From Candidatus Thorarchaeota archaeon (GTDB lineage: Archaea; Asgardarchaeota; Thorarchaeia; Thorarchaeales; Thorarchaeaceae): 13,992 bases of DNA. The notes under the pieces are model-generated. The model worked only from the letters and a program-made list of their open reading frames with translations, was not told the origin of the DNA and made no database searches. Made by a program: the position numbers and the translations under genes. This document shows, in pieces, positions 807-13,960 of the stretch; positions within the stretch are counted from its first letter, which is position 1; every line of letters begins with the position of its first letter. The stretch is taken from positions 1-13,992 of the forward strand of contig JBHLRQ010000082.1 in the NCBI GenBank assembly GCA_048882385.1. Direction: 5' to 3'.

Positions 807-1787
807 TCATCCATATAGATGACAGGCAACTAGTCTATCATTACCCATGTCTATGAGTTCTGGTTCCTCAATTGGACATCTATCAAATGCTTTTGGACAT
901 CTAGGATTGAAGCGGCATCCTGGTGGTGGATTGATTGGACTTGGAATTTCCCCTCTAGGCACAGCCTCATTCTTTTCGATTCTTGGATTTGGCACAGGAA
1001 TTGCACTCATCAATCCTTTCGAGTATGGATGTAACGGGTCTTCGTACAAGCTATCCTTGTCACCCACCTCAACGATTCTTCCAAGATACATTATAGCTAT
1101 TCTGTCACACACATGTCGAGCCGTAGCTAAATCGTGACTGATGAATAGGTAAGTTAGATTGAGTTCCTTCTTCAAGTCTGTCATAAGATCGAGGATTTGG
1201 GCCTTTATTGAAACATCAACCATTGCAACAGGTTCATCAGTTACTACAAACTCTGGTTCAAGTACTATCGCTCTGCCAAAGACAACACGTTGTCGTTGCC
1301 CACCACTTAACTGGTGTGGTAGTCTATTATAGAATGAGCTTGCTGGAGAAAGACCAACACGTTCCAAAGTTTCAATTGCACGTTCTTTCCTTTCATCCTT
1401 TGTGCCCATTCTCTGGAATCTCAAAGCATCAGCAATTGCGTCTCCAACCGTGAGTCTGGGATTCAGTGATGATGTGGGATCTTGAAATGTGAATTGTATC
1501 TTTCTTCGTAAGAAACGCAGATTGCTTCCCTTTGCTTTTGCAATATCTTTTCCGTCGTAGATGATTTTTCCTTCAGTAGGCTTTAACAATCGAACACAGA
1601 GCCTACCGGTTGTGGTTTTTCCTGAACCGCTCTCTCCAGCAAGTCCTAATACTTCTCCTTTTCTTATTTCAAATGAAACATCATCGACAGCTCTGACGAA
1701 GGTTTGCTCTTTCGATATTAGCGATTCCACAAATCCCTTTTGAACTGGGAAGTATTTTTTGACATTCTTGAATTCCATCAACGCCAT
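807..1787 (-). CDS. oppF: Oligopeptide/dipeptide ABC transporter ATP-binding subunit (OppF/DppF)
   Basis: Walker A GESGSGKTT, Q-loop FQDP, signature LSGGQRQR, Walker B VVTDEP, H-loop SHD, HPY motif and C-terminal Cys cluster (GCRFNPRC...C...VACH). Last gene of the operon. Confidence 0.93.
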   Translation of the reverse strand: MALMEFKNVKKYFPVQKGFVESLISKEQTFVRAVDDVSFEIRKGEVLGLAGESGSGKTTTGRLCVRLLKPTEGKIIYDGKDIAKAKGSNLRFLRRKIQFTFQDPTSSLNPRLTVGDAIADALRFQRMGTKDERKERAIETLERVGLSPASSFYNRLPHQLSGGQRQRVVFGRAIVLEPEFVVTDEPVAMVDVSIKAQILDLMTDLKKELNLTYLFISHDLATARHVCDRIAIMYLGRIVEVGDKDSLYEDPLHPYSKGLMSAIPVPNPRIEKNEAVPRGEIPSPINPPPGCRFNPRCPKAFDRCPIEEPELIDMGNDRLVACHLYG

Positions 1788-1790
1788 GAC

Positions 1791-2816
1791 TCATTCCTCC
1801 GGATAAAGGTGACATGCAACCAGTCTATTTTTCTTAACCTCAATTAGTGGAGGTACTTTTGATTTGCAGACATCCATTGCATGTGGGCATCTTGGATTAT
1901 ACATGCAACCCGGAATTGGATCAACAAGGTCTGGGGGAGCTCCGGGAATCCACGACAGTTTCTTTTCTGGTTTTGAAGCATCAGGAACTGACTGAAGAAG
2001 TGCTTGAGCATATGGATGCAATGAATCCTCAAACAAATCAATTGTAGGCGATAATTCCATTATTCTTCCTGTGTACATGATTGCGATAGTGTCAGCAGTT
2101 TGAGCAAGAACCCCGAGATTGTGAGTGATTAGAATCATGGTAAGGTCAAAGACATCTTTTAACTCTGCAATCTCTTCTAATATCTGAGCTTCAACTATGA
2201 CGTCGAGGGAAGTTGTAGGTTCGTCTGCTATCAAAAGTTTAGGTCTGAGAGCTAGACCAAGACCAATCATGACTCGTTGTCTCATTCCTCCACTAAATTG
2301 ATGCGGGTAGTCTTTGATTCTTTCTGGCAATATTCCCAGACCGTCGAGAATCTCCTCTGCTCTCTCCAAAGCCGCTTCATCTTCGATCTCAGGGTTGTGA
2401 GCCTTCATTATCTCAATGAAATGAGTGCCAATTGTAATCATAGGATTGAGTGAGGTCATTGGATCTTGGAAAATGTAAGCTATCTCTTCTCCTCTGATAG
2501 CTCGCATCTCATCTTCTGAAAGGTCCATAATGTTTACTAATCCCTTTTCAACAACTCCTTTCTTGTATGGGATGTCCTCTTTAAGATCGAAGATCATCTC
2601 ACCATTCGTAATCTTTCCTGGATATGGTACAAGTTTCATTATTGCTCTACCTAGAGTGGTCTTACCGCATCCACTCTCTCCAGCTAGACCAAGAGTTTTG
2701 TTTTCAACAAGTTTCAATGAGACATTATCAACAGCCCGGGCTAAACCTCGACGTGTTTTGTATTCAACAGTAAGCTGATTGATGTCTAGTAATGTGGGAT
2801 TATCAAACTCAACCAA
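1791..2816 (-). CDS. oppD: Oligopeptide/dipeptide ABC transporter ATP-binding subunit (OppD/DppD)
   Basis: GESGCGKTT, FQDPMTSLNP, FSGGMRQR, LIADEPTT, THN, HPY and Cys cluster. Start reassigned to TTG at 2816, which follows GGAGTGA just after the oppC stop; the ORF-track start at 2930 lies inside oppC. Confidence 0.92.
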   Translation of the reverse strand: MVEFDNPTLLDINQLTVEYKTRRGLARAVDNVSLKLVENKTLGLAGESGCGKTTLGRAIMKLVPYPGKITNGEMIFDLKEDIPYKKGVVEKGLVNIMDLSEDEMRAIRGEEIAYIFQDPMTSLNPMITIGTHFIEIMKAHNPEIEDEAALERAEEILDGLGILPERIKDYPHQFSGGMRQRVMIGLGLALRPKLLIADEPTTSLDVIVEAQILEEIAELKDVFDLTMILITHNLGVLAQTADTIAIMYTGRIMELSPTIDLFEDSLHPYAQALLQSVPDASKPEKKLSWIPGAPPDLVDPIPGCMYNPRCPHAMDVCKSKVPPLIEVKKNRLVACHLYPEE

Positions 2817-2821
2817 TTGTA

Positions 2822-4093
2822 TCACTCCTTCAATTTTGGTGTTAATATCTCGTTGAGTCCTTCTCCAGCTAAAGTAAAGCCCAAAGCAAGGATTACAATC
2901 ATTAAACCTGGAAAAGTGATGCTCCACCATTTTCCAGCCACATATTCATGGGAACCCCATGTCAAATCCCATCCCCAGTCAGGAACATCTACAGGCAATC
3001 CGAGTCCGACAAATGTCAGTCCTGCTGCGGTTAGTATAGCATCAGCGAAGTTGATAGACATCACTACAATTGAGGACGCAAGGATATTGGGCAAAATGTA
3101 CCTTAGAAGTATCTCTCTATTTCGTGCTCCCATAACTACTGCTGCTTCAACGTAGGGTAGCTCCTTTACAGTCAAGACCTGGCTTCGGACCACCCTAAAA
3201 TAGGATGGAATATATACAACTCCAATTGCCAACGCCATGTTTATGACACCAGGTCCAAGCATTGCTGCAATTGCTATTGCTAGAACAAGTCCTGGAAATG
3301 CGAAAATACTGTCCATTACAAGAGAAACAATTCTATCTACAGCTCCACCTTTATAGGATGCGGCCAGACCTAAAGGCACTCCAATTGAGAAGCAAATCAA
3401 TACTGATAGCATCGCAACTTGAAGCATTATACCTCCGCCAGCTATCACCCTACTGAGAAGATCTTGTCCTATTGAAGTAGTTCCCAAAGGAAACTCAGAG
3501 GACGGTGGTGCACCATAGGGACCCACATCAAGTCTTGATGGGTCATAAGGCACAATCCACCATGATAATGCAGTCATATAGACTACTGAGAAGACTATCA
3601 ATAAGCCTCCCATGGAAATGAATCCTGGTGAGCCTCTGTCGCTTAATCTCGGATAGCCCTCGTATAGTAGGAGTATAATTAGAGAGAGAGATATGCTCCC
3701 TATTGGAAGTGTTGAAGCAAGACTGGAATCGGTTATTTCTGATGGTTGATATATAGACCCTAGTAAGAATGTAAGAGCCACCATCGCCCCAGCAACAATG
3801 ATGAAAACTATGTTCGCTCGTTTTTGGGTCATAGTCATTTGCTCGATAAGTGTACGACGAAATACCGCTGTTAGGAATAAGACGAACCCAAAGAGGAAGG
3901 TGTAACCTATCACAGGTAGACCAATCCCAGAGAATGCTCCTATTCCAAAGAGTATGAGTCCCATCAACATCAAAATAGTACATCCAAGTATTATAATGAA
4001 GGCGCCCCACCACTTTCGCGATTTTTCACTGAACGTATCTCTTGGTGGTTTCAAACGCATGAATACACCGCTCACCAGACTTTTCTGAGTCAT
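2822..4093 (-). CDS. oppC: Peptide ABC transporter permease (OppC/DppC) with N-terminal multi-TM extension
   Basis: PPS..FPLGT..GQDLLSRV motif, EAA loop (YVEAAVVMGA...ILPN), PDWG, WW..FPG; SD AGGAGG upstream of the ATG. Confidence 0.92.
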   Translation of the reverse strand: MTQKSLVSGVFMRLKPPRDTFSEKSRKWWGAFIIILGCTILMLMGLILFGIGAFSGIGLPVIGYTFLFGFVLFLTAVFRRTLIEQMTMTQKRANIVFIIVAGAMVALTFLLGSIYQPSEITDSSLASTLPIGSISLSLIILLLYEGYPRLSDRGSPGFISMGGLLIVFSVVYMTALSWWIVPYDPSRLDVGPYGAPPSSEFPLGTTSIGQDLLSRVIAGGGIMLQVAMLSVLICFSIGVPLGLAASYKGGAVDRIVSLVMDSIFAFPGLVLAIAIAAMLGPGVINMALAIGVVYIPSYFRVVRSQVLTVKELPYVEAAVVMGARNREILLRYILPNILASSIVVMSINFADAILTAAGLTFVGLGLPVDVPDWGWDLTWGSHEYVAGKWWSITFPGLMIVILALGFTLAGEGLNEILTPKLKE

Positions 4094-4104
4094 TTCAATT
4101 CCTC

Positions 4105-5115
4105 CTACAGACGAATTCGGGGGTCTAAATATGCGTAGAGAATGTCCACGATCAACGTTACAAAACTAACAAGGACACCGAAGAAAACTACGACTCCTTG
4201 TATCGCTGTATAGTCCCGATGGTTGATTCTTTGAACAAGGTATGTCCCAAGACCTGGCCAGCTAAACGTTGTTTCAGTGAGAACAGCTCCAGCAAGGAGA
4301 GCTGCAAACTGCAGACCAATCATTGTTAGAATAGGAAGGAATGCATTTTTGAGAGCATATGTGTAGGTGATCTTACTTTCAGAGAGTCCTCTGGCTTCTG
4401 CAGCTACAACAAAATCCATTCTAAGAGTTTCCAACATGTTGGTTCTTGTCAGTCGTATGAATATGCCACATAGGACGGTACCTAAGGTAATTGAAGGTAA
4501 GAGCAGGTACCGGAAAGCTACCACGAACGCTGTTATGTTTCCAGTTAAGAGACTGTCTATCGTATACAGCCCTGTGATTGTTGGTGGCGAATCAATTCGA
4601 GGATCAAATCGTGTGCCAGTGGGAAGGACCCCCAACCAAATTGAGAAAATGAACTGGAGTATCATTCCCAAGAAAAATACTGGAATTGCATATGTAACAA
4701 TCCCAAAAAATCTGATTCCATGATCCTGAGCACTGTCATAACGCTTTGAGGATTTTACTCCAAGTGCAACACCAAGTAGAACTGCAAATAGCATCGAGTA
4801 TAGTGTTAGCTCAAGTGTTGCAGGAAACCTTACCCAGATGTGGCCGCTGATTGAGGAATAATCCTGCATCGATAAACCTAGATCGAGTGTTAAGAGACCA
4901 AATAGATAATTGAAATACTGAACATGGGGTGGTAAATCTAATCCAAGTATATGTCGAAATTCTGCTAGCACTTCAGGATCAACATTCTTTTCAAAATGAA
5001 GTAATGCTGGATCCCCTGGTATTACTCTTATAATTAGAAAAACAAGTGTGAGAAGAAGCATTATCATGGGGATTGTTAGAAGGACCCGGCTAACGATATA
5101 CGTCCTTAATGTCAT
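4105..5115 (-). CDS. oppB: Peptide ABC transporter permease (OppB/DppB)
   Basis: PGDPA, LGLD.P..VQY, FPATLEL, ARGL EAA-like loop, ET.FSWPGLG, RDY..IQG. The ATG at 5115 is preceded by AGGTG. Confidence 0.93.
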   Translation of the reverse strand: MTLRTYIVSRVLLTIPMIMLLLTLVFLIIRVIPGDPALLHFEKNVDPEVLAEFRHILGLDLPPHVQYFNYLFGLLTLDLGLSMQDYSSISGHIWVRFPATLELTLYSMLFAVLLGVALGVKSSKRYDSAQDHGIRFFGIVTYAIPVFFLGMILQFIFSIWLGVLPTGTRFDPRIDSPPTITGLYTIDSLLTGNITAFVVAFRYLLLPSITLGTVLCGIFIRLTRTNMLETLRMDFVVAAEARGLSESKITYTYALKNAFLPILTMIGLQFAALLAGAVLTETTFSWPGLGTYLVQRINHRDYTAIQGVVVFFGVLVSFVTLIVDILYAYLDPRIRL

Positions 5116-5246
5116 TAGTAACACCTACAATTGAATTCAGTGGAATATCAAAATTCTACCATTTCATTGTATCTTAAAGCCTTCGACCCAAGTAAATATA
5201 AAATCTGAAAAACCAGTTAGTTGTTTCCGAATAAAAAATGAGAGAT

Positions 5247-5268
5247 AGGCAGGTTGGATAACCTGCCT
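5247..5268 (-). terminator. Stem-loop followed by T-tract downstream of oppA (partial terminator or mRNA stabiliser)
   Basis: Perfect 9-bp inverted repeat AGGCAGGTT-GGAT-AACCTGCCT, 13 nt after the oppA stop, followed on the minus strand by ATCTCTCATTTTTTATT. Confidence 0.6.
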
Positions 5269-5281
5269 GTTATCAGATAAA

Positions 5282-6925
5282 CTAAGTTGTGGGCGCCTCG
5301 ATATACACTAACCAGTGACGCCAATTGACTGTAATATCTAGCACGACACCCTTGACATCAAGTTTTGTAACAGCTACGGTATTACTCTGCCATATCGGGA
5401 CAACTGAACATTCTTGTGCCTGCAATTCTTGCAGGTCCGTGTATGCCCATCCTCTGGCAGTGTCATTCTCAGCACTTCGCCCTTCATTCCACAGAGCGTA
5501 CTGATCAATTCCACCTTGTGGATAGGAGCTATTGTAGCCAAGGTTCAGCCATGATGCGAATGGTAGAAACTCATAGTTGTCGGGATCGATGAAGTCAGGA
5601 TACCATCCATAGATGAATACATCCATCGTTCCTTCGTTTCGTCGTGTTCTATATGTTGGCCAATCAATACCCGTGAGAGTGACTTCAATCACATTACTGT
5701 CTTCCCAGTCTTGCTGGTAAACAAGTGCTTGTTGTTGACTCGATGGATAGTGACCAGAACTCTCATAGTATAGATGCAACTGAAGCGGGTGCGTCTCATT
5801 AAAGCCAAATGGCGCTAATAGCTCCCTTGTCTTCGTATAATTAGCATCGCCCCAGATATCGAATGTATCTGTATGATATGCCATTCCGATGGGTATCATG
5901 CTATAGAGTTCATCAAAGTAACCTTTGAACACCGAATCCACAACATGTGTTCTGTTGATACCAGCTGTGATTCCCTGTCGTACTGCTGTTTCATTGTATG
6001 GGTAAATATCCTGCTGGAAACAGAGATATTGAATCTGGGCTCCAATACCCTCCCATACCTCGACATTCGTATTCTCCTTGAACGCGTCAATTTGGTCTGC
6101 AGTCAACTGTCTGTAAGCAACATCAATCTCACCAGCTGTCATGGCTGCAGCTAGTGTCTGGTCGCTCGAATACATCTTGATGATGATTCGTTCTGTCTTT
6201 GGATAACCAGCAGCAGCATTCCAGTAGTCTGGATTCTTAATCAGTGTGATGTGATCATCACTTCCACCAATTCTGACCCATTCTTGAAGTATGTATGGGC
6301 CAAGTGCAGCTGGAGTCTGTGGTGTTGATGTAAAGTTGACAAGCTCGTTCATTGGCGCAATTGCCCTGTCCACCATATATGATGCTGCACATGACATTAG
6401 CTGCAAGAATGGTGCAAATGCTATCTTCAGATAGAATCTTACCACAAATTCACTAATGATAGTGACATTTTCGATGATTGCATCATATTCCATGTTCAAC
6501 TGCGGTCCGTCGAGTTCGAAAAGACCTTCTCCGGTGAGGTTGCAGTTTCTGTCAAATGTATACTTGACATCTGTTGCATTAAACTCTCTGCCATCAGGGA
6601 ACAATACATTTTGTCTCAGAGTGAAGTCCCATATGGTACCTCCTCCGCTCACGTCCCAACTAGTCGCCAACGCAGGTAGTATATCATCAGCCCCTGCTTC
6701 GGAACCAGGATCAATCTCAACTAAGCCTGAGCTCAGTGCTATAATTGTATTCCATCCGAAGTAGTCGTATGACTGAGCCATGTCCAAGCTCGATTCCACA
6801 GAATCTGTAGTACCCACAACAATTGTAGGAACACCAGGTCCCGGTGGAAAGAGCACAATATAGGCTCCAACAGAACCGACGATAACTAGGATGACGACTA
6901 TTGCAATAGTCTGATTTCGTTCCAT
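5282..6925 (-). CDS. oppA: ABC transporter substrate-binding protein, family 5 (OppA/DppA-like), N-terminally membrane anchored
   Basis: N-terminal hydrophobic anchor; family 5 motifs P.LATSW..S...WDFTLR..V.F.DG..FNA.DVKYTF, GPY, NPDYW, VRQ.I..GINR, W.PD..DPD; SD GGAGG. Confidence 0.92.
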   Translation of the reverse strand: MERNQTIAIVVILVIVGSVGAYIVLFPPGPGVPTIVVGTTDSVESSLDMAQSYDYFGWNTIIALSSGLVEIDPGSEAGADDILPALATSWDVSGGGTIWDFTLRQNVLFPDGREFNATDVKYTFDRNCNLTGEGLFELDGPQLNMEYDAIIENVTIISEFVVRFYLKIAFAPFLQLMSCAASYMVDRAIAPMNELVNFTSTPQTPAALGPYILQEWVRIGGSDDHITLIKNPDYWNAAAGYPKTERIIIKMYSSDQTLAAAMTAGEIDVAYRQLTADQIDAFKENTNVEVWEGIGAQIQYLCFQQDIYPYNETAVRQGITAGINRTHVVDSVFKGYFDELYSMIPIGMAYHTDTFDIWGDANYTKTRELLAPFGFNETHPLQLHLYYESSGHYPSSQQQALVYQQDWEDSNVIEVTLTGIDWPTYRTRRNEGTMDVFIYGWYPDFIDPDNYEFLPFASWLNLGYNSSYPQGGIDQYALWNEGRSAENDTARGWAYTDLQELQAQECSVVPIWQSNTVAVTKLDVKGVVLDITVNWRHWLVYIEAPTT

Positions 6926-7087: not shown

Positions 7088-7966
7088 TTAGAACTGTGAA
7101 AGAGCTCCTTTTCCCCTTACATACCTCTCAGTTCTTCTGAAGAGAACGACTCCCAATATGAGAAAGACCACATCGAGGATGATCAGTGCGATGATTGCAT
7201 TAATCACTCCTGAAAATGCCAATCCTTCCATTAGAAATCCTCTGAATGCTTCAACGCTCCATGTCAATGGTGATGCAACTGAAATATATTGAAGATATAT
7301 CGGAAGAACAGCAATTGGGTAGGACATCGGAGCTACAAGGAATAGTATGCTCGAGAGCATTTCCAGAATCATCCAGCCTTGTTTTGCCAAGATGACAATA
7401 CAGACGACGATTAATACGATACCCTGCATCCCGATGATTGAGAGTGCAACCACCCCGAGAGCTGGTAACACTCCCCAGAGATTGAGACCCACACCAAATA
7501 AGACCACAGAAGCCCCCAGCTGAAGGACAACTCCTAATCCTCCATGTTGGATGTTATGAAGAGTTGATCCCCAGATGAATGTGTTCTTACTCATTGGGGT
7601 GGTCATGATGGTTTCAAGGGTTCCAGCATTCTGTTCTCTGCGAAGAGTAAAACCACTACCCCAGATGAGGCTTATTGCTAGACCTGCATATGCACTACCA
7701 ATAGCGATATAGCTGATCCAGTCTCCAGAACCTACCATCCCCTCAAGAGCAGAAGATTCCGCGTTTCCAGTAACTGCTGTACCTGTCAATAACATGGGTA
7801 TGAACCACAGGAACGGCATGACAACGAACCACAGAATGCTCAGAGGATAACTGAGCTCAACCTGCCACTGTTTTATTGCCAATGCGTTTGCAGCTCTAAG
7901 TTCAGCTCGCCATCCTTTTCTCTCCCACATTCTCTTGAAAATGGGTGATACTGATTCTTCTGGCAT
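7088..7966 (-). CDS. ABC-2 type exporter permease
   Basis: About six hydrophobic segments, RREQNAGTLETIMTTP, YPIAVLP, SPLTW.VEAFR; abuts the upstream permease stop. Confidence 0.9.
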   Translation of the reverse strand: MPEESVSPIFKRMWERKGWRAELRAANALAIKQWQVELSYPLSILWFVVMPFLWFIPMLLTGTAVTGNAESSALEGMVGSGDWISYIAIGSAYAGLAISLIWGSGFTLRREQNAGTLETIMTTPMSKNTFIWGSTLHNIQHGGLGVVLQLGASVVLFGVGLNLWGVLPALGVVALSIIGMQGIVLIVVCIVILAKQGWMILEMLSSILFLVAPMSYPIAVLPIYLQYISVASPLTWSVEAFRGFLMEGLAFSGVINAIIALIILDVVFLILGVVLFRRTERYVRGKGALSQF

Positions 7967-8863
7967 TTAGAAGTCCCCCATGTGACCGCGGCTCTTGGTC
8001 CATTTCTCTGCGTATTTGAAAGATCCAAGTCCAAGTGTCCAGAAGAACACCCCAAGAACTGAAAGTCCAAAGAGGACTTGAGCAAAGGACAAGAGATCGA
8101 ACACTCCAGTGATTGCTAGCTCTCTTACTGTGATGATGCCTATTGTTGTTGGAATCAGATAGGCGAAGAACCTAATGCTTGAAGGTAGGGTCTGTATTGG
8201 ATACTGCACTGGAGATACAACATAGGTGGCATTGGATACTAGTTCAGTTAGAACTGATGGGTCCTTGAATACCAGAATCAGTCCAGCAACCATGAAGCTG
8301 AATCCATACAAAGCAATGACCATTACAATCATGATGATGATTGTTGGTAGAATTGCAATGAGCGAGTACGACACCCCAAACATGACCATCGATATGGCCA
8401 GAAGGACCAATGACTGGATTATGCATAGTGCAGTATCTGAGAATGCAGCACCCAAGAGGATACTGATACGTGGAACTGGAGTTGAGAACAAAGGCTCGAG
8501 AGTACCACTGAACTGCTCCCATCGGAAATTGTTACCAATGGCCCATATGCTATTGTCTAGGAACATGTACACAAACCAACCAATCACTGAGAATTGGATA
8601 TAATCTGAGAACCCAGATAGCTCTGTAAAGTATACATTTTCAGGTCCTGCAATTGCATTTACCATCAGTATAAACGGAGCAAACCAAAGGATTGGCATAA
8701 ACGCCCAAATAACCCAGTTAGAGGGATATCGCATAGCAATCCTAAGATTCTTCATAGCAAAGATTCTTGCAGCAGACCAGTCCATCATACGAGGCTTAAA
8801 GTCTGCCATGTAAATGCTCTCGATACGAGGCTTCTCATCCTTTTCCTGAACGGAGACTGTCAA
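7967..8863 (-). CDS. ABC-2 type exporter permease
   Basis: About six hydrophobic segments, RWEQFSGTLEPLFSTP, YPIQTLP, IPTT...VR; the TTG start overlaps the ATPase stop (TTGA). Confidence 0.9.
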   Translation of the reverse strand: MTVSVQEKDEKPRIESIYMADFKPRMMDWSAARIFAMKNLRIAMRYPSNWVIWAFMPILWFAPFILMVNAIAGPENVYFTELSGFSDYIQFSVIGWFVYMFLDNSIWAIGNNFRWEQFSGTLEPLFSTPVPRISILLGAAFSDTALCIIQSLVLLAISMVMFGVSYSLIAILPTIIIMIVMVIALYGFSFMVAGLILVFKDPSVLTELVSNATYVVSPVQYPIQTLPSSIRFFAYLIPTTIGIITVRELAITGVFDLLSFAQVLFGLSVLGVFFWTLGLGSFKYAEKWTKSRGHMGDF

Positions 8864-9852
8864 TCCTCAATCCTCCTTCCAGTCAACTGCAAGAATACGT
8901 CATCGAGAGTTGGTTCTTTCACTTCGAAGTGTTCGACCTTTACTCCACTGGTCGAACGCATGTAGTCGAGGAGAGTGTGTGCCATCTCATAGCCATTCTG
9001 TGCTGTCACAACTAGGTCGGAATGACCATTCCTTGTGTTCATGGTTGCAGACATGACATGCTCCATTTTCTTGATGAAATCGATGTCTGGAACACCAAGA
9101 ATCTTCATGTGAAGACTGTCATAGTCCCTGACTCCTTCCTTCAAATCATGTGGAGTCCCGAAACTCTTAATCTCTCCCTCGTTGATGAGTGCAATCTTAT
9201 CACAGAGCATGTCGGCTTCGTGCATGTAGTGTGTTGTCAGCAGAATGGTCTTGTCACGGAGCTTCTCCCGGATGTACTTTCTTAGATCTGATGCAAATGT
9301 TGGATCCAATCCTTGCGTTGGCTCATCGAAAAGTAATACCGGAGGGTCGTGAATGAGTGAACGTGCGAACACGATCTTCATCCGCATACCATGCGAAAGG
9401 TTCTCGGCCTTCTCGTCAGCCTTCTCAGTGAGTCCCATCCGCCCAAGTAGCTCATCTGCTCTTTCCTTTGCTTCGCTAGTGGGCATCCTGTATAGCTTCG
9501 CAAAGAAGATGATGTTCTCCCTGGCACTCAGCTTCCAGTAGATGCTTCTCTCATTTCCCTGACATACGCCCATCGATGCTCTTGCGTATGTGGATTCCTT
9601 TAGTACATCATATCCATTTACTCTGGCTGATCCAGAGGTCGGAAGAACAAGGGTTGCGAGGCATTTGATCAGAGTCGTTTTCCCGGCACCGTTGGGTCCA
9701 AGTAAGCCATAGATCTGACCCTTCGGTATGTCCAGTGAAACCGACTTGAGAGCCTCAACCTTCTTCTTCTCAGTAGGAATGATGATAGCCTTCCTCTTTA
9801 CACTGATGAAGGTCTTTGATAGGTTCTCTATTTCTACAGCGTTACTTGTCAA
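8860..9852 (-). CDS. ABC-2 type exporter ATP-binding protein (DrrA/CcmA-like multidrug family)
   Basis: GLLGPNGAGKTT, LSHGMR signature, LLFDEPTQGLDP, LLTTHYMHEAD, C-terminal EPTLDDVFL.LTG. TTG start with GGGAGGT SD. Confidence 0.92.
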   Translation of the reverse strand: MTSNAVEIENLSKTFISVKRKAIIIPTEKKKVEALKSVSLDIPKGQIYGLLGPNGAGKTTLIKCLATLVLPTSGSARVNGYDVLKESTYARASMGVCQGNERSIYWKLSARENIIFFAKLYRMPTSEAKERADELLGRMGLTEKADEKAENLSHGMRMKIVFARSLIHDPPVLLFDEPTQGLDPTFASDLRKYIREKLRDKTILLTTHYMHEADMLCDKIALINEGEIKSFGTPHDLKEGVRDYDSLHMKILGVPDIDFIKKMEHVMSATMNTRNGHSDLVVTAQNGYEMAHTLLDYMRSTSGVKVEHFEVKEPTLDDVFLQLTGRRIED

Positions 9853-9995
9853 CGTTTAGTACCTCCCCAAACCGGGTTAGTATGTCGGTGTTCATTTAGC
9901 CCATAATGTCACTCAGGTCTTACAGAACCCGAGTGAGAAAGAATCGCACGGGGGTTCATTCCCGTTGTTTTGCTGTGAGCATTCGAAACACCTAT
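9853..9995 (-). promoter_or_regulatory. Structured 5' leader (candidate attenuator/RNA switch) of the ABC-2 operon
   Basis: 10-bp stem TCACTCGGGT/ACCTGAGTGA (9909-9936), a CGGG/CCCG hairpin over the uORF stop, and the SD in the loop of GTTTGG/CTAAAC; all conserved in the second copy. Confidence 0.55.
9956..9982 (-). CDS. Putative 8-aa leader peptide MLTAKQRE
   Basis: ATG CTC ACA GCA AAA CAA CGG GAA TGA, with GGTG 6 nt upstream; same length, SD, start and stop in copy 2. Confidence 0.5.
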   Translation of the reverse strand: MLTAKQRE

Positions 9996-10012
9996 CTTGG
10001 GGCGGTATACTC

Positions 10013-10031
10013 TTTGTATATGAATTTTTCC
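10013..10031 (-). promoter_or_regulatory. Putative BRE-TATA promoter of leader/ABC-2 operon
   Basis: GGAAAAATTCATATACAAA; the box TTCATATA starts 42 nt upstream of the uORF ATG, the same spacing as in copy 2. Confidence 0.5.
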
Positions 10032-12433: not shown

Positions 12434-12583
12434 CTATTTGTCTTGAAAAACAAAGCGAGGAGATTTTGAAGAGTAATGAAACAACGCTATGTCGTTCTTT
12501 CTTGTTGGGTTGATGATAGCCTCCCTTATTACACTGATGAAGGTCTTTGATAGGTTCTCAATTTCTGCAGCGTTACTTGTCAA
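12434..12583 (-). pseudogene. Truncated 5' fragment of ABC-2 ATPase (49-aa ORF)
   Basis: MTSNAAEIENLSKTFISVIREAIINPT matches MTSNAVEIENLSKTFISVKRKAIIIPT of 8860-9852, then runs into unrelated sequence and a TAG at 12434-12436. Confidence 0.8.
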
Positions 12584-12682
12584 CGTTTAGTACCTCCCCA
12601 AACCGGGTTAGTATGTCGGTGTTCATATAGCCCATAATGTCACTCAGGTCTTCCTGAACCCGAGTGAGAAAGAATCGCCGGG

Positions 12683-12709
12683 TCACTCCCGTGTAAGTAT
12701 CTTGAGCAT
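12683..12709 (-). CDS. Putative 8-aa leader peptide MLKILTRE
   Basis: ATG CTC AAG ATA CTT ACA CGG GAG TGA, with GGTG 6 nt upstream. Confidence 0.45.
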   Translation of the reverse strand: MLKILTRE

Positions 12710-12739
12710 GCGAAACACCCGCCGCCGAGGGGACAGGTT

Positions 12740-12758
12740 TTAGTAAATGAATATTTCC
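12740..12758 (-). promoter_or_regulatory. Putative BRE-TATA promoter, copy 2
   Basis: GGAAATATTCATTTACTAA, homologous to the copy 1 box and at identical distance from the uORF ATG. Confidence 0.4.
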
Positions 12759-12853
12759 ACTTATTGAGAACTGAGATTCTTGACCAAAAAATGGTGGCAA
12801 ACATTGAATGCTTGTTCCACTGGATTTTTCTTAGTTTGTTATGAACTAGTCAT

Positions 12854-13960
12854 ATGTCGCTGGTTGGAGGTGCTTTGCTCCAGATTGAGAATCTACGGGC
12901 TTATCATAGCTCTAAGGAAGGTCTAGTCAAAGCTGTCAATAATGTGTCCTTTGATATTCGAAGAGGCGAGAGCGTTGGGCTCCTGGGTGAGTCAGGAGCT
13001 GGGAAGAGCTCTATAGCCCTCGCAATTCTTGGTCTGTTCGAACGTCAGTCAAGATACTATGCCACTTCTGCAAAAAATAAGGAGAACCGGTATCTATGGA
13101 GTCTCAGAGATAAGGCAAGAGCAGAAGGTAAGACTTCAGAAGAGATGGGAGTTGAGCTTCCTGGTGTTGAGGGACATATCTGGTTTGATGGAATAGAACT
13201 TGTCAACTTAGACAAGAAGAAGCATCCCTCGATAATTGGGAACAGGATTACTTACATTCCACAGGGAACCTCAAAAGCTCTCAATCCACTTCTCACCATA
13301 GAAGCCCAGGTCTTGGAAAGTCTTTGGATGCAGTTCAGAGAGAAAGTGATAGACGACAAGAAGGCCGCCATGCAGGTTCTAGAAGCATTGGACCTAGTTG
13401 AACTCGGAGATATGGCTACTCGAAGAGAAATGTTTCCAACTGATTTCAGTACAGGTGAGGACCAGCGTGTACTACTTGCCATAGCTCTCATATCTCGACC
13501 TGATTTGATCATCGCAGATGAACCAACGACTGCAATGGATGCTGCATTGCAACATAGAATATTGACTGCTATCAGGCGTGCATGCGAAGACTTGGAACGA
13601 TCCATGCTTATGATTTCTAATGATCCCGGGGTTATCACTGCCACCTGTATCAAGGTTGGAGTCATGTCTTCCGGAATGATGATGGAGTTTGGCAGTGTAA
13701 AACATGTAATGAATGAGCCAGTGCATCCCTTTACACAGGCATTTCTCATGAGCAATCCAACGTTCGAGATGATGAAACAGATACGTCAGAGGGGTGAGAG
13801 GTTACGACCTATCCCTGGGAGACCACCAAGCCTGATTGACCTACCTAGAGGCTGTCCCTTCAACAGTCGTTGCTCAAAAGCTGAAGATATCTGCAAGGAG
13901 AAACGCCCTGAGTACAGAGAGATTGAATCTGGCCATTGGATCTACTGTCATCTGGCTTGA
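12854..13960 (+). CDS. OppD/DppD-like ABC ATP-binding protein with degenerate signature and H-loop
   Basis: GESGAGKSS, IPQGTSKALNP, FSTGEDQR, IIADEPTT, MISND, HPF, C-terminal GCPFNSRC...C...IYCH. Confidence 0.85.
   Translation: MSLVGGALLQIENLRAYHSSKEGLVKAVNNVSFDIRRGESVGLLGESGAGKSSIALAILGLFERQSRYYATSAKNKENRYLWSLRDKARAEGKTSEEMGVELPGVEGHIWFDGIELVNLDKKKHPSIIGNRITYIPQGTSKALNPLLTIEAQVLESLWMQFREKVIDDKKAAMQVLEALDLVELGDMATRREMFPTDFSTGEDQRVLLAIALISRPDLIIADEPTTAMDAALQHRILTAIRRACEDLERSMLMISNDPGVITATCIKVGVMSSGMMMEFGSVKHVMNEPVHPFTQAFLMSNPTFEMMKQIRQRGERLRPIPGRPPSLIDLPRGCPFNSRCSKAEDICKEKRPEYREIESGHWIYCHLA

Follow-up and report, generated by a model that had tools for sequence, protein, structure and literature searches.

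The window, i.e., the whole stretch of DNA analysed here, comprises 13,992 nucleotides of a Thorarchaeota-type (Asgard) archaeon. The host lineage represents the closest prokaryotic relatives of eukaryotes. The window carries an ABC-2 exporter operon whose first gene is preceded by a leader with a very short upstream open reading frame (uORF) and several predicted helices. Two Shine-Dalgarno (SD) sites lie in the leader, SD1 in front of the uORF and SD2 in front of the main gene. The features of the operon and of its leader (copy 1) are listed in the order of transcription.

10017-10031, minus strand: BRE/TATA-like promoter of copy 1, GGAAAAATTCATATA, with the TATA-like box at 10024-10017
9986-9993, minus strand: SD1 (AGGTG) of the uORF, identity 0.95, which is also the 5' strand of helix P0 (GGTGTTT, 9992-9986)
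9956-9982, minus strand: uORF of copy 1, 8 codons plus stop, MLTAKQRE*
9948-9965, minus strand: hairpin P1 (segments 1:2); its 5' strand contains the Arg codon CGG of the uORF, and its loop the stop codon
9937-9947, minus strand: pyrimidine-rich linker GCGATTCTTTC between segments 2 and 3
9909-9936, minus strand: hairpin P2 (segments 3:4), with 11 bp in the MFE structure; segment 2 is an alternative partner of its segment 3
9887-9903, minus strand: 3' strands of helices P0b (TGGGC, 9903-9899) and P0 (GAACACC, 9893-9887)
9861-9876, minus strand: hairpin P3 (CCC 9876-9874 with GGG 9868-9866), which extends into the 5' end of SD2
9866-9861, minus strand: main SD (SD2), GGAGGT, serving a weak TTG start
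8860-9852, minus strand: ABC ATPase gene, TTG start at 9852-9850, first gene of the ABC-2 exporter operon
7967-8863 and 7088-7966: permease genes of the same operon, ABC2_membrane in both

The ATPase matches Pfam ABC_tran and has a DrrA1-3 C-terminal domain. Its best NCBIfam match is the drrA subfamily (284 bits, below the cut-off of 312). By these assignments the leader belongs to the mRNA of a DrrAB-like ABC-2 exporter operon. The genome encodes TBP and thus is archaeal. ARAGORN predicted no tRNA, and this genome's assembly contains no 16S rRNA gene from which the anti-SD sequence could be read.

A second copy of the leader lies upstream in the same window.

12581-12758, minus strand: copy 2, promoter plus leader, covariance-model score 147 bits, all elements intact
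12758-12744, 12720-12716, 12597-12592 and 12583-12581, minus strand: TATA-like block, SD1, SD2 and TTG of copy 2, respectively
12709-12683, minus strand: uORF of copy 2, 8 codons, MLKILTRE*
12691-12679, 12667-12640 and 12624-12618, minus strand: P1, P2 and the 3' strand of P0 of copy 2, respectively
12434-12583, minus strand: truncated 5' end of an ATPase gene, about 24 shared codons followed by unrelated sequence to the stop (end counted by hand)
12332-10086: ORF of a 748-aa surface protein, after the truncated ATPase copy

Copies 1 and 2 share 97% identity in the 95 nt that precede the start codon, and the similarity continues 73 nt into the coding sequence. A reading made earlier from the sequence alone had counted three differences in the 95 non-coding positions against five in the 73 coding ones, and these counts are right. 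The near-identity is best explained by recent duplication or gene conversion; the evidence for function is taken from other genomes instead. Second copies in those genomes resemble remnants beside inserted genes: in genome G024 the genes next after the second copy are two small ones in the opposite orientation, and in genome G011 only the 5' part of the copy is left. We considered whether second copies drive other genes as a general rule and rejected this, as a downstream gene on the same strand (the 748-aa one) is found only in this window. Here, co-regulation of that gene by copy 2 is possible.

BLAST found the leader in 21 of the 27 genomes of the same genus. A covariance model recovered it in 21 of these 27 genomes, in 6 of 17 genomes of a second genus (g3), and in none of the 41 genomes of the family's other 14 genera. 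With the same architecture and a diverged sequence, it also stands before the orthologous ATPase gene and ABC-2 operon in further Thorarchaeota records. Over 120 pairs formed by 16 genus sequences, leader identity is 74.4%; in the ATPase gene of the same pairs, identity is 48.5% at third codon positions and 87.8% at first plus second ones. By this comparison the leader is under purifying selection. SD1, the start codon, segments 1-3, both strands of P0 and P3/SD2 have identities of 0.83-0.98, and loops, linkers, junctions and the uORF interior 0.32-0.55. In genus g3 the central hairpins are replaced by unrelated ones, and the uORF, P0 and P3 remain. As far as the alignments tell, this is a conserved leader made of a uORF and a structure, in which the SD sites, start and stop are kept while the peptide drifts. 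On this point the earlier proposal is supported: the leader is non-coding, conserved and structured, has a short uORF, and can form hairpins that exclude one another.

The promoter block is nearly invariant among 22 genus sequences and is retained in genus g3. The conserved block GG(A/T)AAAATTCATATA stands at the promoter position, the genome has TBP genes, and the RNA contigs show no ends. Archaeal BRE/TATA elements typically lie about 25-30 nt 5' of the start site, and from this usual spacing we infer that transcription starts about 2 nt 5' of AGGTG. Between the TATA box and SD1 there is a CC.C.CG block of moderate conservation. A promoter-word match on contig C94 was rejected as a further copy, for it sits at the start of an unrelated gene. 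Public RNA runs were used in the form of Logan contigs, which are silent on starts, ends, strand and level, and whose uncovered parts carry no meaning. Contig X1 (243 nt) of an RNA library spans 9730-9972, with one end within the uORF and the other in the coding sequence; it counts as weak evidence because DNA carry-over is possible. Contigs X2 and X6 of relatives cover 9713-9918, and X3 covers 12529-12672.

The uORF has 8 codons in all 22 genus sequences, and its start lies 6-7 nt from the GGTG of SD1. It starts with ATG in 21 of them and with GTG in one; the stop is TGA in 11, TAA in nine and TAG in two, with the T invariant. Pairwise identity of the interior is only 0.55. In genus g3 the uORF again has 8 codons and encodes a different peptide, and its length is 5-11 codons in those orthologous Thorarchaeota leaders that have one. 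GGTG followed by a start and an ORF of 2-11 codons occurs in 45 of 51 orthologous upstream regions, compared with a mean of 2.2 of 51 in shuffled sequences and 3 of 51 in reverse complements. The peptides vary (MLTILRRE, MDKLSNRE, MKTEYLKE, MKLRE and others), and thus no arrest motif or run of regulatory codons is recognisable among those compared. Codon 7 is CGG in 21 of the 22 sequences, yet the same bases form the P1 stem, which confounds the two roles. CGG is rare, with 10 of the 186 Arg codons (5%) in the ORFs of the window. Longer ORFs across the leader (58 aa sense, 55 aa antisense) were rejected because indels of 1-4 nt in the genus alignment break their frames and the start of the sense ORF lies ahead of the TATA box. 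The uORF is presumably translated.

The RNAalifold consensus holds P0, P1, P2 and P3. For the 147-nt leader the MFE is -46.2 kcal/mol (z = -2.81), and one of 200 dinucleotide shuffles folds as low; the MFE z is clearly low only in lineages g1 and g3, the other 11 lineages having values of -0.15 to -1.74. P0 is a long-range helix (9992-9986 with 9893-9887) found in both the consensus and the MFE fold. It pairs the ribosome-binding site of the uORF with a segment 5' of the main SD, some 35 nt ahead of the main start codon. The identity of its 3' strand is 0.94. Next to it, TGGGC at 9903-9899 (P0b) pairs with uORF codons 1-2 at 9980-9976. This sequestration of the uORF's own SD was absent from the sequence-only reading.

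A closure of the P0 type was predicted in 10 of 13 diverged lineages (8-16 expected pairs versus 2.4-3.0 in shuffles) and was not predicted in the other three. The Fisher p across the 13 lineages is 3e-5, a value that overstates the evidence because the lineages are related. When the duplex energy between the uORF start region and the pre-SD2 region was compared with shuffled partners, p ranged from 0.001 to 0.72 per lineage, and the combined Fisher p over 14 representatives was 3e-5. A matrix of cognate versus non-cognate duplexes was noisy, with the cognate partner ranking 1-4 of 17 in 9 of 17 rows, and is given no weight here.

The CGGG/CCCG hairpin that had been described over the uORF Arg codon and stop exists in both copies, with the stop in its loop. 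In copy 1, ACGGG (9965-9961) pairs with CCCGT (9952-9948), and in copy 2, CGGG (12691-12688) pairs with CCCG (12682-12679). P1 is paired in 92% of cells of the genus alignment. Counterparts of other sequence were seen by eye in other genera (GGA/UCC, CGGAA/UUCCG, GGGA/UCCC). P2 corresponds to the 10-bp stem reported earlier at 9936-9909 and 12667-12640, and the only two differences between its copies do lie in the loop. It is paired in 93.9% of cells, with identities of 0.94 for segment 3 and 0.76 for segment 4. No U run follows P2. The linker between segments 2 and 3 has a mean identity of 0.50 with three invariant T positions, and this U/C-rich stretch is not retained in genus g3. A termination factor may use this linker as its U-rich site.

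P3 is paired in 97% of cells, and hairpins of other sequence, e.g., CUCCAU/AUGGAG, occupy its place in other lineages. The small hairpin at the main SD appears local and constant in the folding models. A different enclosure of SD2, in the loop of GTTTGG/CTAAAC, had been suggested earlier; that pairing is present in this genome but is not conserved in relatives, where the share of pairing cells is 68.5% (25-56% in slid controls) and the RNAalifold consensus lacks it.

Hairpins 1:2, 2:3 and 3:4 are mutually exclusive, and no covariation stands behind them. The sequence-only reading had noticed that the 5' arm of the P2 stem could pair elsewhere. This complementarity exists: the 2:3 helix forms standard pairs in 87% of cells among 22 genus sequences, compared with 11-55% when the partner is slid by 1-3 columns. 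In transcripts truncated after segment 3, the 2:3 helix is the MFE structure in 10 of 11 usable sequences. The 2:3 hairpin is trailed by only 2-4 U in some species. At the corresponding position genus g3 shows, as judged by eye, two other hairpins that overlap.

The covariation that had been named as a check was not significant within the genus, where only 1 of 23 pairs changed on both sides. In the genus alignment 95.2% of cells pair; the figure for shuffles is 94.5%, and 8 out of 500 were at least as high as the alignment. Conservation in more distant homologues turned out positively, and the stems recur there. The stems are conserved rather than compensated, and the cross-genus support is at the level of whole helices and partly by eye.

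The reading that we favour, tentatively and at slightly less than an even chance, is a uORF-dependent, ribosome-sensing cis-regulatory leader of the exporter operon. From the BRE/TATA promoter a leader of about 150 nt would be made, beginning with an SD (GGUG) and the very short uORF. In the ground state the ribosome-binding site of the uORF would be locked in P0 and its stop would lie in the 1:2 loop, with the strong 3:4 hairpin next and a small hairpin over the 5' half of the main SD, which serves the weak TTG. The uORF could then be translated only before the nascent RNA closes P0, and the position of its ribosome would pick the hairpin. A ribosome slowed within the uORF, e.g., at the rare CGG codon 7, would mask segment 1 and favour 2:3; a ribosome at the stop codon, or none, would favour 1:2 plus 3:4. 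The chosen fold would set the amount of full-length, translatable operon mRNA, probably through premature termination or decay in the leader, or through access to the start region. The signal sensed may be the state of translation, e.g., a ribosome-directed toxin removed by the exporter. The switching, the output step and the signal are our interpretation of the predicted folds.

The uORF was masked at each ribosome position by equilibrium folding in sets of 24 and 11 leaders. P2 and P3 stayed in place, and the unpaired fraction of SD2 and the start barely shifted, with no consistent direction; the models thus show no coupling of the uORF to the main gene. The idea that a ribosome on the uORF simply unmasks the main SD was dropped on this account. 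Of the conformational switch proposed earlier, the alternative fold stands in that truncated RNA adopts 2:3, but the control of SD access does not. These results also bear on a leader that works constitutively, with no switch at all. Here P0 would hide the 5' end and stabilise the mRNA, P3 and the TTG would tune translation down, and the uORF would be a harmless or mildly repressive decoy. One dominant fold (P0, P1, P2, P3) in most sequences, hardly altered downstream by uORF masking, agrees with such a leader, as does P0 beginning within a few nucleotides of the inferred 5' end. However, it gives no reason for a conserved 2:3 helix that would be the first fold of the nascent RNA, for analogous overlapping hairpins in genus g3, or for keeping an SD-led uORF of fixed length in 45 of 51 orthologous regions. 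We regard a constitutive leader as unlikely.

Operation by a protein, either a repressor on inverted DNA repeats or an RNA-binding protein on the folded leader, with the uORF being secondary, seems improbable to a similar degree. Words resembling CTCGG/CCGAG recur by eye in segments 2, 3 and 4 and in the leaders of several other lineages, the CC.C.CG block is present 5' of SD1, segment 3 is invariant, and uORF masking is without effect on SD2 in the models. The variants of segment 4 speak against DNA repeats. Segment 4 is CCTGAG in 16 sequences, TCCGAG in five and CTTGAG in two, and is never the perfect complement of the invariant segment 3; the pairing always includes at least one G-U and thus bears an RNA-level signature. 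In addition, the inferred start is some 45-90 nt 5' of the repeats, an uncommon arrangement for archaeal repressors. Moreover, a protein would leave unexplained the invariant SD1, start codon and stop T, the fixed 8-codon length, and the persistence of P0 and P3 at their places with different sequences in other lineages. No regulator gene was seen in the window.

A ligand-binding riboswitch, in which a metabolite or ion at the P0/P1/P2 junction stabilises the closed fold and the uORF is incidental or belongs to the expression platform, would suit a closed multi-helix junction that precedes a transporter gene and is accompanied by an SD hairpin. It is distinctly improbable. Coupling to a ligand had been part of the sequence-only reading, but the junctions and loops are the least conserved parts (0.32-0.55, near the level of third codon positions). 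Furthermore, the central hairpins are replaced by unrelated ones in the neighbouring genus while the uORF, P0 and P3 stay, and the detectable sequence family is confined to two genera. No conserved unpaired core across distant hosts was found. The suggested search of Rfam (release 15, cmscan of the whole window, both strands) gave no matches at E <= 1, so a riboswitch here would be a new class. Finally, the view that the leader has no function and that its similarity reflects only recent duplication or gene conversion in this genome accounts for the 97% identity of the copies and the remnant-like second copies elsewhere, but is hardly credible given the excess of leader identity across the genus over synonymous-type sites (74% versus 48.5%), a conservation patterned on stems, SD sites, start and stop, and an architecture that recurs in other genera.

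A ribosome-sensing leader can be compared with several known systems. In Bacillus subtilis, bmrB-bmrCD is a leader-peptide, ribosome-mediated transcription attenuator of an ABC exporter (PMC4191407). The present leader resembles the trpL and bmrB attenuators in having an SD-led short leader ORF (here presumably translated) and overlapping pairings 1:2, 2:3 and 3:4 from the ORF end onwards, among which the ribosome position would choose. As with bmrCD, the candidate regulated gene is an ABC exporter. In contrast to those attenuators, the host here is an archaeon, the uORF has only 8 codons with no run of regulatory codons, and an extra long-range helix sequesters the SD of the leader ORF itself. 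A G+C-rich hairpin followed by a U run was also not found here, in contrast to that type of attenuator; with no U run, the 3:4 hairpin is not a bacterial intrinsic terminator. Archaeal termination is not known to depend on hairpins.

In translation attenuation of the cat/cmlA/erm kind, a drug-stalled ribosome on a short leader peptide opens a hairpin over the main ribosome-binding site. The present leader shares with it a very short leader ORF (about 8-9 codons), a main SD partly in a hairpin and a regulated gene that is plausibly one for resistance or efflux. In contrast to cat and erm, the uORF stop is followed by P3 only after about 90 nt, outside the ribosome footprint; a stalled ribosome did not open the SD2 hairpin in the equilibrium models, and no conserved arrest peptide is seen. 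Control of the tnaC/Rho type is a third comparison, and archaeal FttA/aCPSF1 is regarded as an analogue of Rho. A ribosome terminating on the short uORF would adjoin the U/C-rich tract, and a uORF that can be translated on nascent RNA only would be in keeping with read-through that depends on coupling. Unlike in tnaC/Rho-type control, the tract is short and not kept in genus g3, and any role of FttA is putative. The genome has a 640-aa beta-CASP ORF as an FttA candidate.

Eukaryotic uORFs (GCN4, the arginine attenuator peptide, the short ORF plus stem of the caulimovirus shunt) are similar in that the uORF is very short, its length outweighs the peptide and a stable structure follows. Unlike those, the uORF here lies inside the closing helix and not before it, and both reading frames have SD sites, hence initiation is of the bacterial/archaeal kind.

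Leader-peptide attenuation is textbook bacterial biology, and regulatory uORFs are textbook eukaryotic biology. A full-text literature search, which covers subscription journals thinly and does not prove absence, found no archaeal leader-peptide attenuator or regulatory uORF. The present leader may be the first ribosome-mediated attenuator in Archaea, with a uORF used on nascent RNA only and a sequential 1:2, 2:3, 3:4 pathway plus P0 gating termination or decay of the FttA type, although we consider this more specific claim doubtful. If it is true, the operon of a drug exporter carries in its leader a minimal uORF that reports on blocked elongation or on the coupling of transcription and translation.

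The DrrAB-like exporter is probably inducible. Inducibility would hint that Thorarchaeota face translation stress or chemical warfare in their sediment communities. The leader offers a concrete and mutable test object for the crosstalk between the archaeal ribosome, RNA folding and a termination factor, and it bears on whether the lineage closest to eukaryotes had control of this kind.

The leader precedes a three-gene ABC-2 operon (copy 1) and is repeated 5' of a 748-aa ORF (copy 2).

Features of the leader region and the operon
12434-12760, minus: promoter, leader and ATPase fragment of copy 2, on the far side of the 748-aa ORF
about 12758-12510, minus: copy 2, leader and first 73 nt of the ATPase gene
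12332-10086, minus: 748-aa ORF, 5' of a non-coding stretch and then of the three-gene ABC-2 operon
TTG start at 9852, minus: ATPase, operon gene 1, with Pfam ABC_tran and the DrrA1-3 C-terminal domain
8863-7967 and 7966-7088, minus: two permeases (Pfam ABC2_membrane)

The ATPase is nearest to the drrA subfamily of NCBIfam (284 bits, under the cut-off of 312), and the permeases have weak DrrB matches. From these domain and family matches the operon is read as a DrrAB-like exporter of unspecified substrate. The ATPase has its closest orthologues, with 70-96% amino-acid identity, in records of Candidatus Thorarchaeota or Promethearchaeota. The genome encodes TBP, a family confined among the control genomes to the four archaeal ones; no 16S rRNA gene is assembled in it. 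TBP and the orthologues place the host among the Asgard archaea, as a member of Thorarchaeota type. Located 3' of the exporter operon is a complete oligopeptide-type ABC importer cluster (807-6925, minus), made up of a family-5 solute-binding protein, two permeases and two ATPases that carry the oligo_HPY domain. An extra oligo_HPY-type ATPase is encoded at the other end of the window (12854-13960, plus). The ORFs listed at 1791-2930 and 2822-4093 overlap by 109 nt, thus one start is probably mis-set.

By BLAST, 21 of the genus's 27 other genomes have the leader, 70-85% identical; the list matched 24 of 61 genomes, two of them by chance-like matches of 21-22 nt in other families. A covariance model built on 22 genus sequences found it in the same 21/27 genomes, in 6/17 genomes of a second genus and in none (0/41) of the genomes from the family's 14 other genera, which are 52-99% complete. 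The genome studied has just two copies. In 120 pairwise comparisons of 16 genus sequences, the 150-nt stretch 5' of the start shows 74.4% identity, versus 48.5% at third codon positions of the adjacent ATPase gene (87.8% at first plus second positions), which indicates that the leader is under purifying selection.

Mean pairwise identity of leader elements (segments 1-4 are strands of the hairpins; SD, Shine-Dalgarno; uORF, upstream ORF)
GGTGTTT, uORF SD site: 0.95
uORF start codon: 0.97
CGGG, segment 1: 0.98
Segment 2: 0.83
Segment 3: 0.94
Segment 4: 0.76
GAACACC (3' strand of helix P0): 0.94
Small hairpin plus main SD: 0.94-0.95
Main start: 0.97
Loops, linkers, junctions, uORF codons 2-6: 0.32-0.55

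The values in the last line are near the third-position level. Judged by sequence conservation, kept stems and free loops mark a structured RNA, and a fixed start and stop with a drifting interior point to a uORF whose translation outweighs its product.

The uORF (9956-9982 in copy 1, 12709-12683 in copy 2) has eight codons in 22/22 genus sequences. It starts with ATG in 21 and GTG in one, and stops with TGA in 11, TAA in nine and TAG in two. Indels are absent from start to stop and frequent in the rest of the leader. The uORF of the second genus also has eight codons, with unrelated peptides (e.g., MKTEYLKE), and uORFs of further lineages have 5-11. GGTG followed 3-10 nt on by a start and an ORF of 2-11 codons occurs in 45 of 51 orthologue upstream regions, near-duplicates included (the misses are loci L067, L080, L089, L110, L128 and L143), versus a mean of 2.2/51 (maximum 7) in mononucleotide shuffles and 3/51 in reverse complements. 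Codon 7 is CGG in 21/22 genus sequences and its bases are also a hairpin strand (9962-9964; 12689-12691), so that selection may act on either the codon or the strand. Of the 186 Arg codons counted over the ten large ORFs of the window, 10 are CGG. In a lineage with five-codon uORFs (MKLRE, MKHRD, MKSRE; loci L077, L081, L091 and L098), the ATPase orthologue has CTG where TTG is the start in the window. Two codons further 5', just 1 nt past the SD, it also has an in-frame ATG, and either codon may be the true start.

A moderately conserved C-rich block (CC.C.CG, often CCCTCGG or CCCCGAG; 10001-10016 and homologues) is located 5' of the uORF SD, between the TATA box and the transcription start, which was placed by promoter spacing. 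It shares the CTCGG/CCGAG word with the hairpin strands and could be a repressor site, or part of the RNA if the start site is further 5'. The promoter word AAATTCATATA has one other exact copy in the genome (locus L164; contig C94 of G000, 3271-3281), a few nt 5' of an ATG-initiated, possibly leaderless ORF; no leader-like sequence follows it on that contig.

The 147-nt leader folds at -46.2 kcal/mol (z = -2.81), equalled by 1/200 dinucleotide shuffles. Four helices, P0 to P3, are common to RNAalifold and single-sequence folds. P0, missed by the sequence-only reading, pairs GGUGUUU of the uORF SD (9992-9986) with GAACACC (9893-9887). It is extended by P0b (uORF codons 1-2 with UGGGC) and closes a domain comprising the whole uORF and two hairpins. 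P1 (segments 1:2, 9948-9965), with the uORF stop codon in its loop, is the CGGG/CCCG hairpin that had been noticed over the Arg codon and stop of the eight-codon uORF, and both copies have it. P2 (segments 3:4), a strong hairpin of 9-11 bp, corresponds to the 10-bp stem recognized earlier at 9936-9909 and 12667-12640, where the two differences between the copies are indeed both in the loop. P3 is a hairpin of 3-5 bp; the G run with which the main SD begins forms its 3' strand. All features listed in the sequence-only reading were located in the sequence, but the GTTTGG/CTAAAC helix proposed around this SD fared worse on comparison: it pairs in just 68.5% of cells and is missing from the RNAalifold prediction. 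Rfam, suggested as a check, gave no match to the leader.

Within the genus, standard pairs fill 95.2% of 505 cells versus 26-52% after the partner is shifted by 1-3 columns and 94.5% in column-wise shuffles. A two-sided change is seen in 1/23 pairs; the stems are conserved in this alignment, and covariation, one of the suggested checks, does not prove them. Stems do occur in more distant homologues, as helices of different sequence at the same places, which speaks for RNA pairing in the models. P0-type closure, in which the region of the uORF start pairs with the segment 5' of the main SD, has 8-16 expected pairs in 10 of 13 diverged lineages versus 2.4-3.0 in shuffles (200 dinucleotide shuffles per lineage; p 0.01-0.13 for these ten, 0.24-0.35 for L085, L093 and L094); the Fisher p of 3e-5 is overstated because the lineages are related. 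P1-like and P3-like hairpins of these lineages were read by eye.

Segment 4 (9909-9919 and homologues) has the variants CCUGAG (16), UCCGAG (5) and CUUGAG (2) among 23 distinct sequences, and in none of them (0/23) is it a perfect complement of the invariant segment 3. Each of the 23 has at least one G-U wobble in P2, at either of two positions. Pairing held solely via G-U would be intolerable for a DNA palindrome and thus speaks for RNA pairing. Perfect P2 pairing seems to be avoided; the wobbles perhaps keep the hairpin openable.

Segment 2 (CCCGAG or GAACCC) can pair with either segment 1 or segment 3, and the alternative partners suggested for CGGGTT are found in the sequence. The 2:3 helix is formed in 87% of cells, and when transcripts end just past segment 3 it is the minimum-energy fold in 10 of the 11 genus sequences that could be used (a twelfth, cut too short, was dropped; the exception is L066). 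As RNA grows, the hairpins are therefore predicted to form in the order 1:2, 2:3, 3:4 and, last, P0 closure. In the second genus two other hairpins, read by eye, replace these and overlap each other at the same place. The mutually exclusive hairpins of the sequence-only reading are real and conserved as a property. Its proposed control of SD access, coupled to the uORF, was not supported in silico: when nucleotides under a ribosome were forced unpaired at the uORF start, each codon and the stop, in one set of 24 leaders and another of 11, the main SD and start changed little in their unpaired fraction and in no consistent direction. P3 is local and constant under masking, P2 is kept under most masks at equilibrium, and there is no U run 3' of P2. 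So the link between uORF and exporter is invisible in silico, and may be kinetic, factor-dependent or nonexistent. The evidence is comparative and thermodynamic, apart from one low-depth RNA-library contig that joins the leader, from within the uORF, to the coding sequence.

Tentatively, and at the level of class, we regard the leader as an element read by ribosomes; any detail is held with less confidence. Transcription of the P0 3' strand, some 100 nt downstream, would end the time in which the uORF SD is free, and the uORF would therefore sample ribosome loading and movement on nascent RNA. A ribosome with codon 7 (CGG) in the A site would cover segment 1 and leave segment 2 free, favouring 2:3; a ribosome at the uORF stop would sit on segment 2, so that 3:4 and P0 closure are favoured. 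Depending on the fold, RNA polymerase, a termination or decay factor, or the next ribosome would proceed more or less well. One version follows tnaC/Rho logic: archaeal FttA/aCPSF1 would load at the U/C-rich linker just 3' of the uORF, and a 640-aa beta-CASP ORF of the genome is a candidate for this factor. The signal might be translation stress from a compound removed by the pump.

This last idea is drawn by analogy with bmrB-bmrCD of B. subtilis, which we consider the nearest functional precedent. In that system antibiotics targeting protein synthesis induce an ABC exporter by way of a translated leader ORF and its three alternative stem-loops (PMC4191407). On this reading the leader would have the logic of bacterial leader-peptide attenuators in an archaeal host, with no bacterial terminator and with an added helix, P0, that closes off the ribosome-binding site of the uORF itself. 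A full-text literature search, outside most subscription journals, for systems with uORFs, leader peptides or attenuation in archaea, Asgard archaea included, gave bacterial and eukaryotic work alone.

A constitutive leader that stabilises and tunes expression would fit the single dominant fold, but neither the conserved 2:3 option nor the uORF, and it is rather unlikely. An element operated by a protein would explain why CTCGG/CCGAG words recur; we find this unlikely, since the G-U pattern, the conserved SD, start and stop, and a position far downstream of the inferred transcription start favour RNA and ribosomes. A riboswitch is improbable, since conservation is lowest in the junctions and the second genus has another core in its place. 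Recent duplication alone, the fallback of the sequence-only reading, is the best explanation of the 97% identity of the two copies (its counts of 3/95 non-coding and 5/73 coding differences were right), but as an explanation of the element it is refuted, being contradicted by the distribution over two genera, the leader versus third-position identity and the segment-wise pattern.

No element of copy 2 is damaged; the three positions at which it departs from copy 1 in the 3' part all fall in loops or junctions. Its 5' part (promoter and uORF) is closer to other species' variants than to copy 1: the peptide MLKILTRE is nearer to the variant of other species than to MLTAKQRE of copy 1. This suggests a mosaic origin, with the 3' part converted later. 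After copy 2 come 24 ATPase codons, unrelated sequence to a stop, and then the gene for the 748-aa membrane-anchored surface protein (hydrophobic N-terminal segment, C-terminal membrane anchor), which has no Pfam or NCBIfam matches. The layout looks as though this gene had entered the promoter-leader region and the target had been duplicated in the process. Extra copies in two other genomes of the genus, G024 and G011, are partial and adjoin inserted or opposite-strand genes. The second copy in G024 lies 1.1 kb 5' of the full one (L059, 894-1041 and 2184-2334), and the opposite strand of the interval encodes two small membrane proteins, paralogous to each other, of 90 and 141 aa; the second copy in G011 (L052, 1501-1626) has the promoter, uORF and segment 2 left. 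By their arrangement, these copies also look like duplications from gene insertion into the promoter-leader region. In this window only, the second copy might put a second gene, that of the surface protein, under the same control as the exporter.
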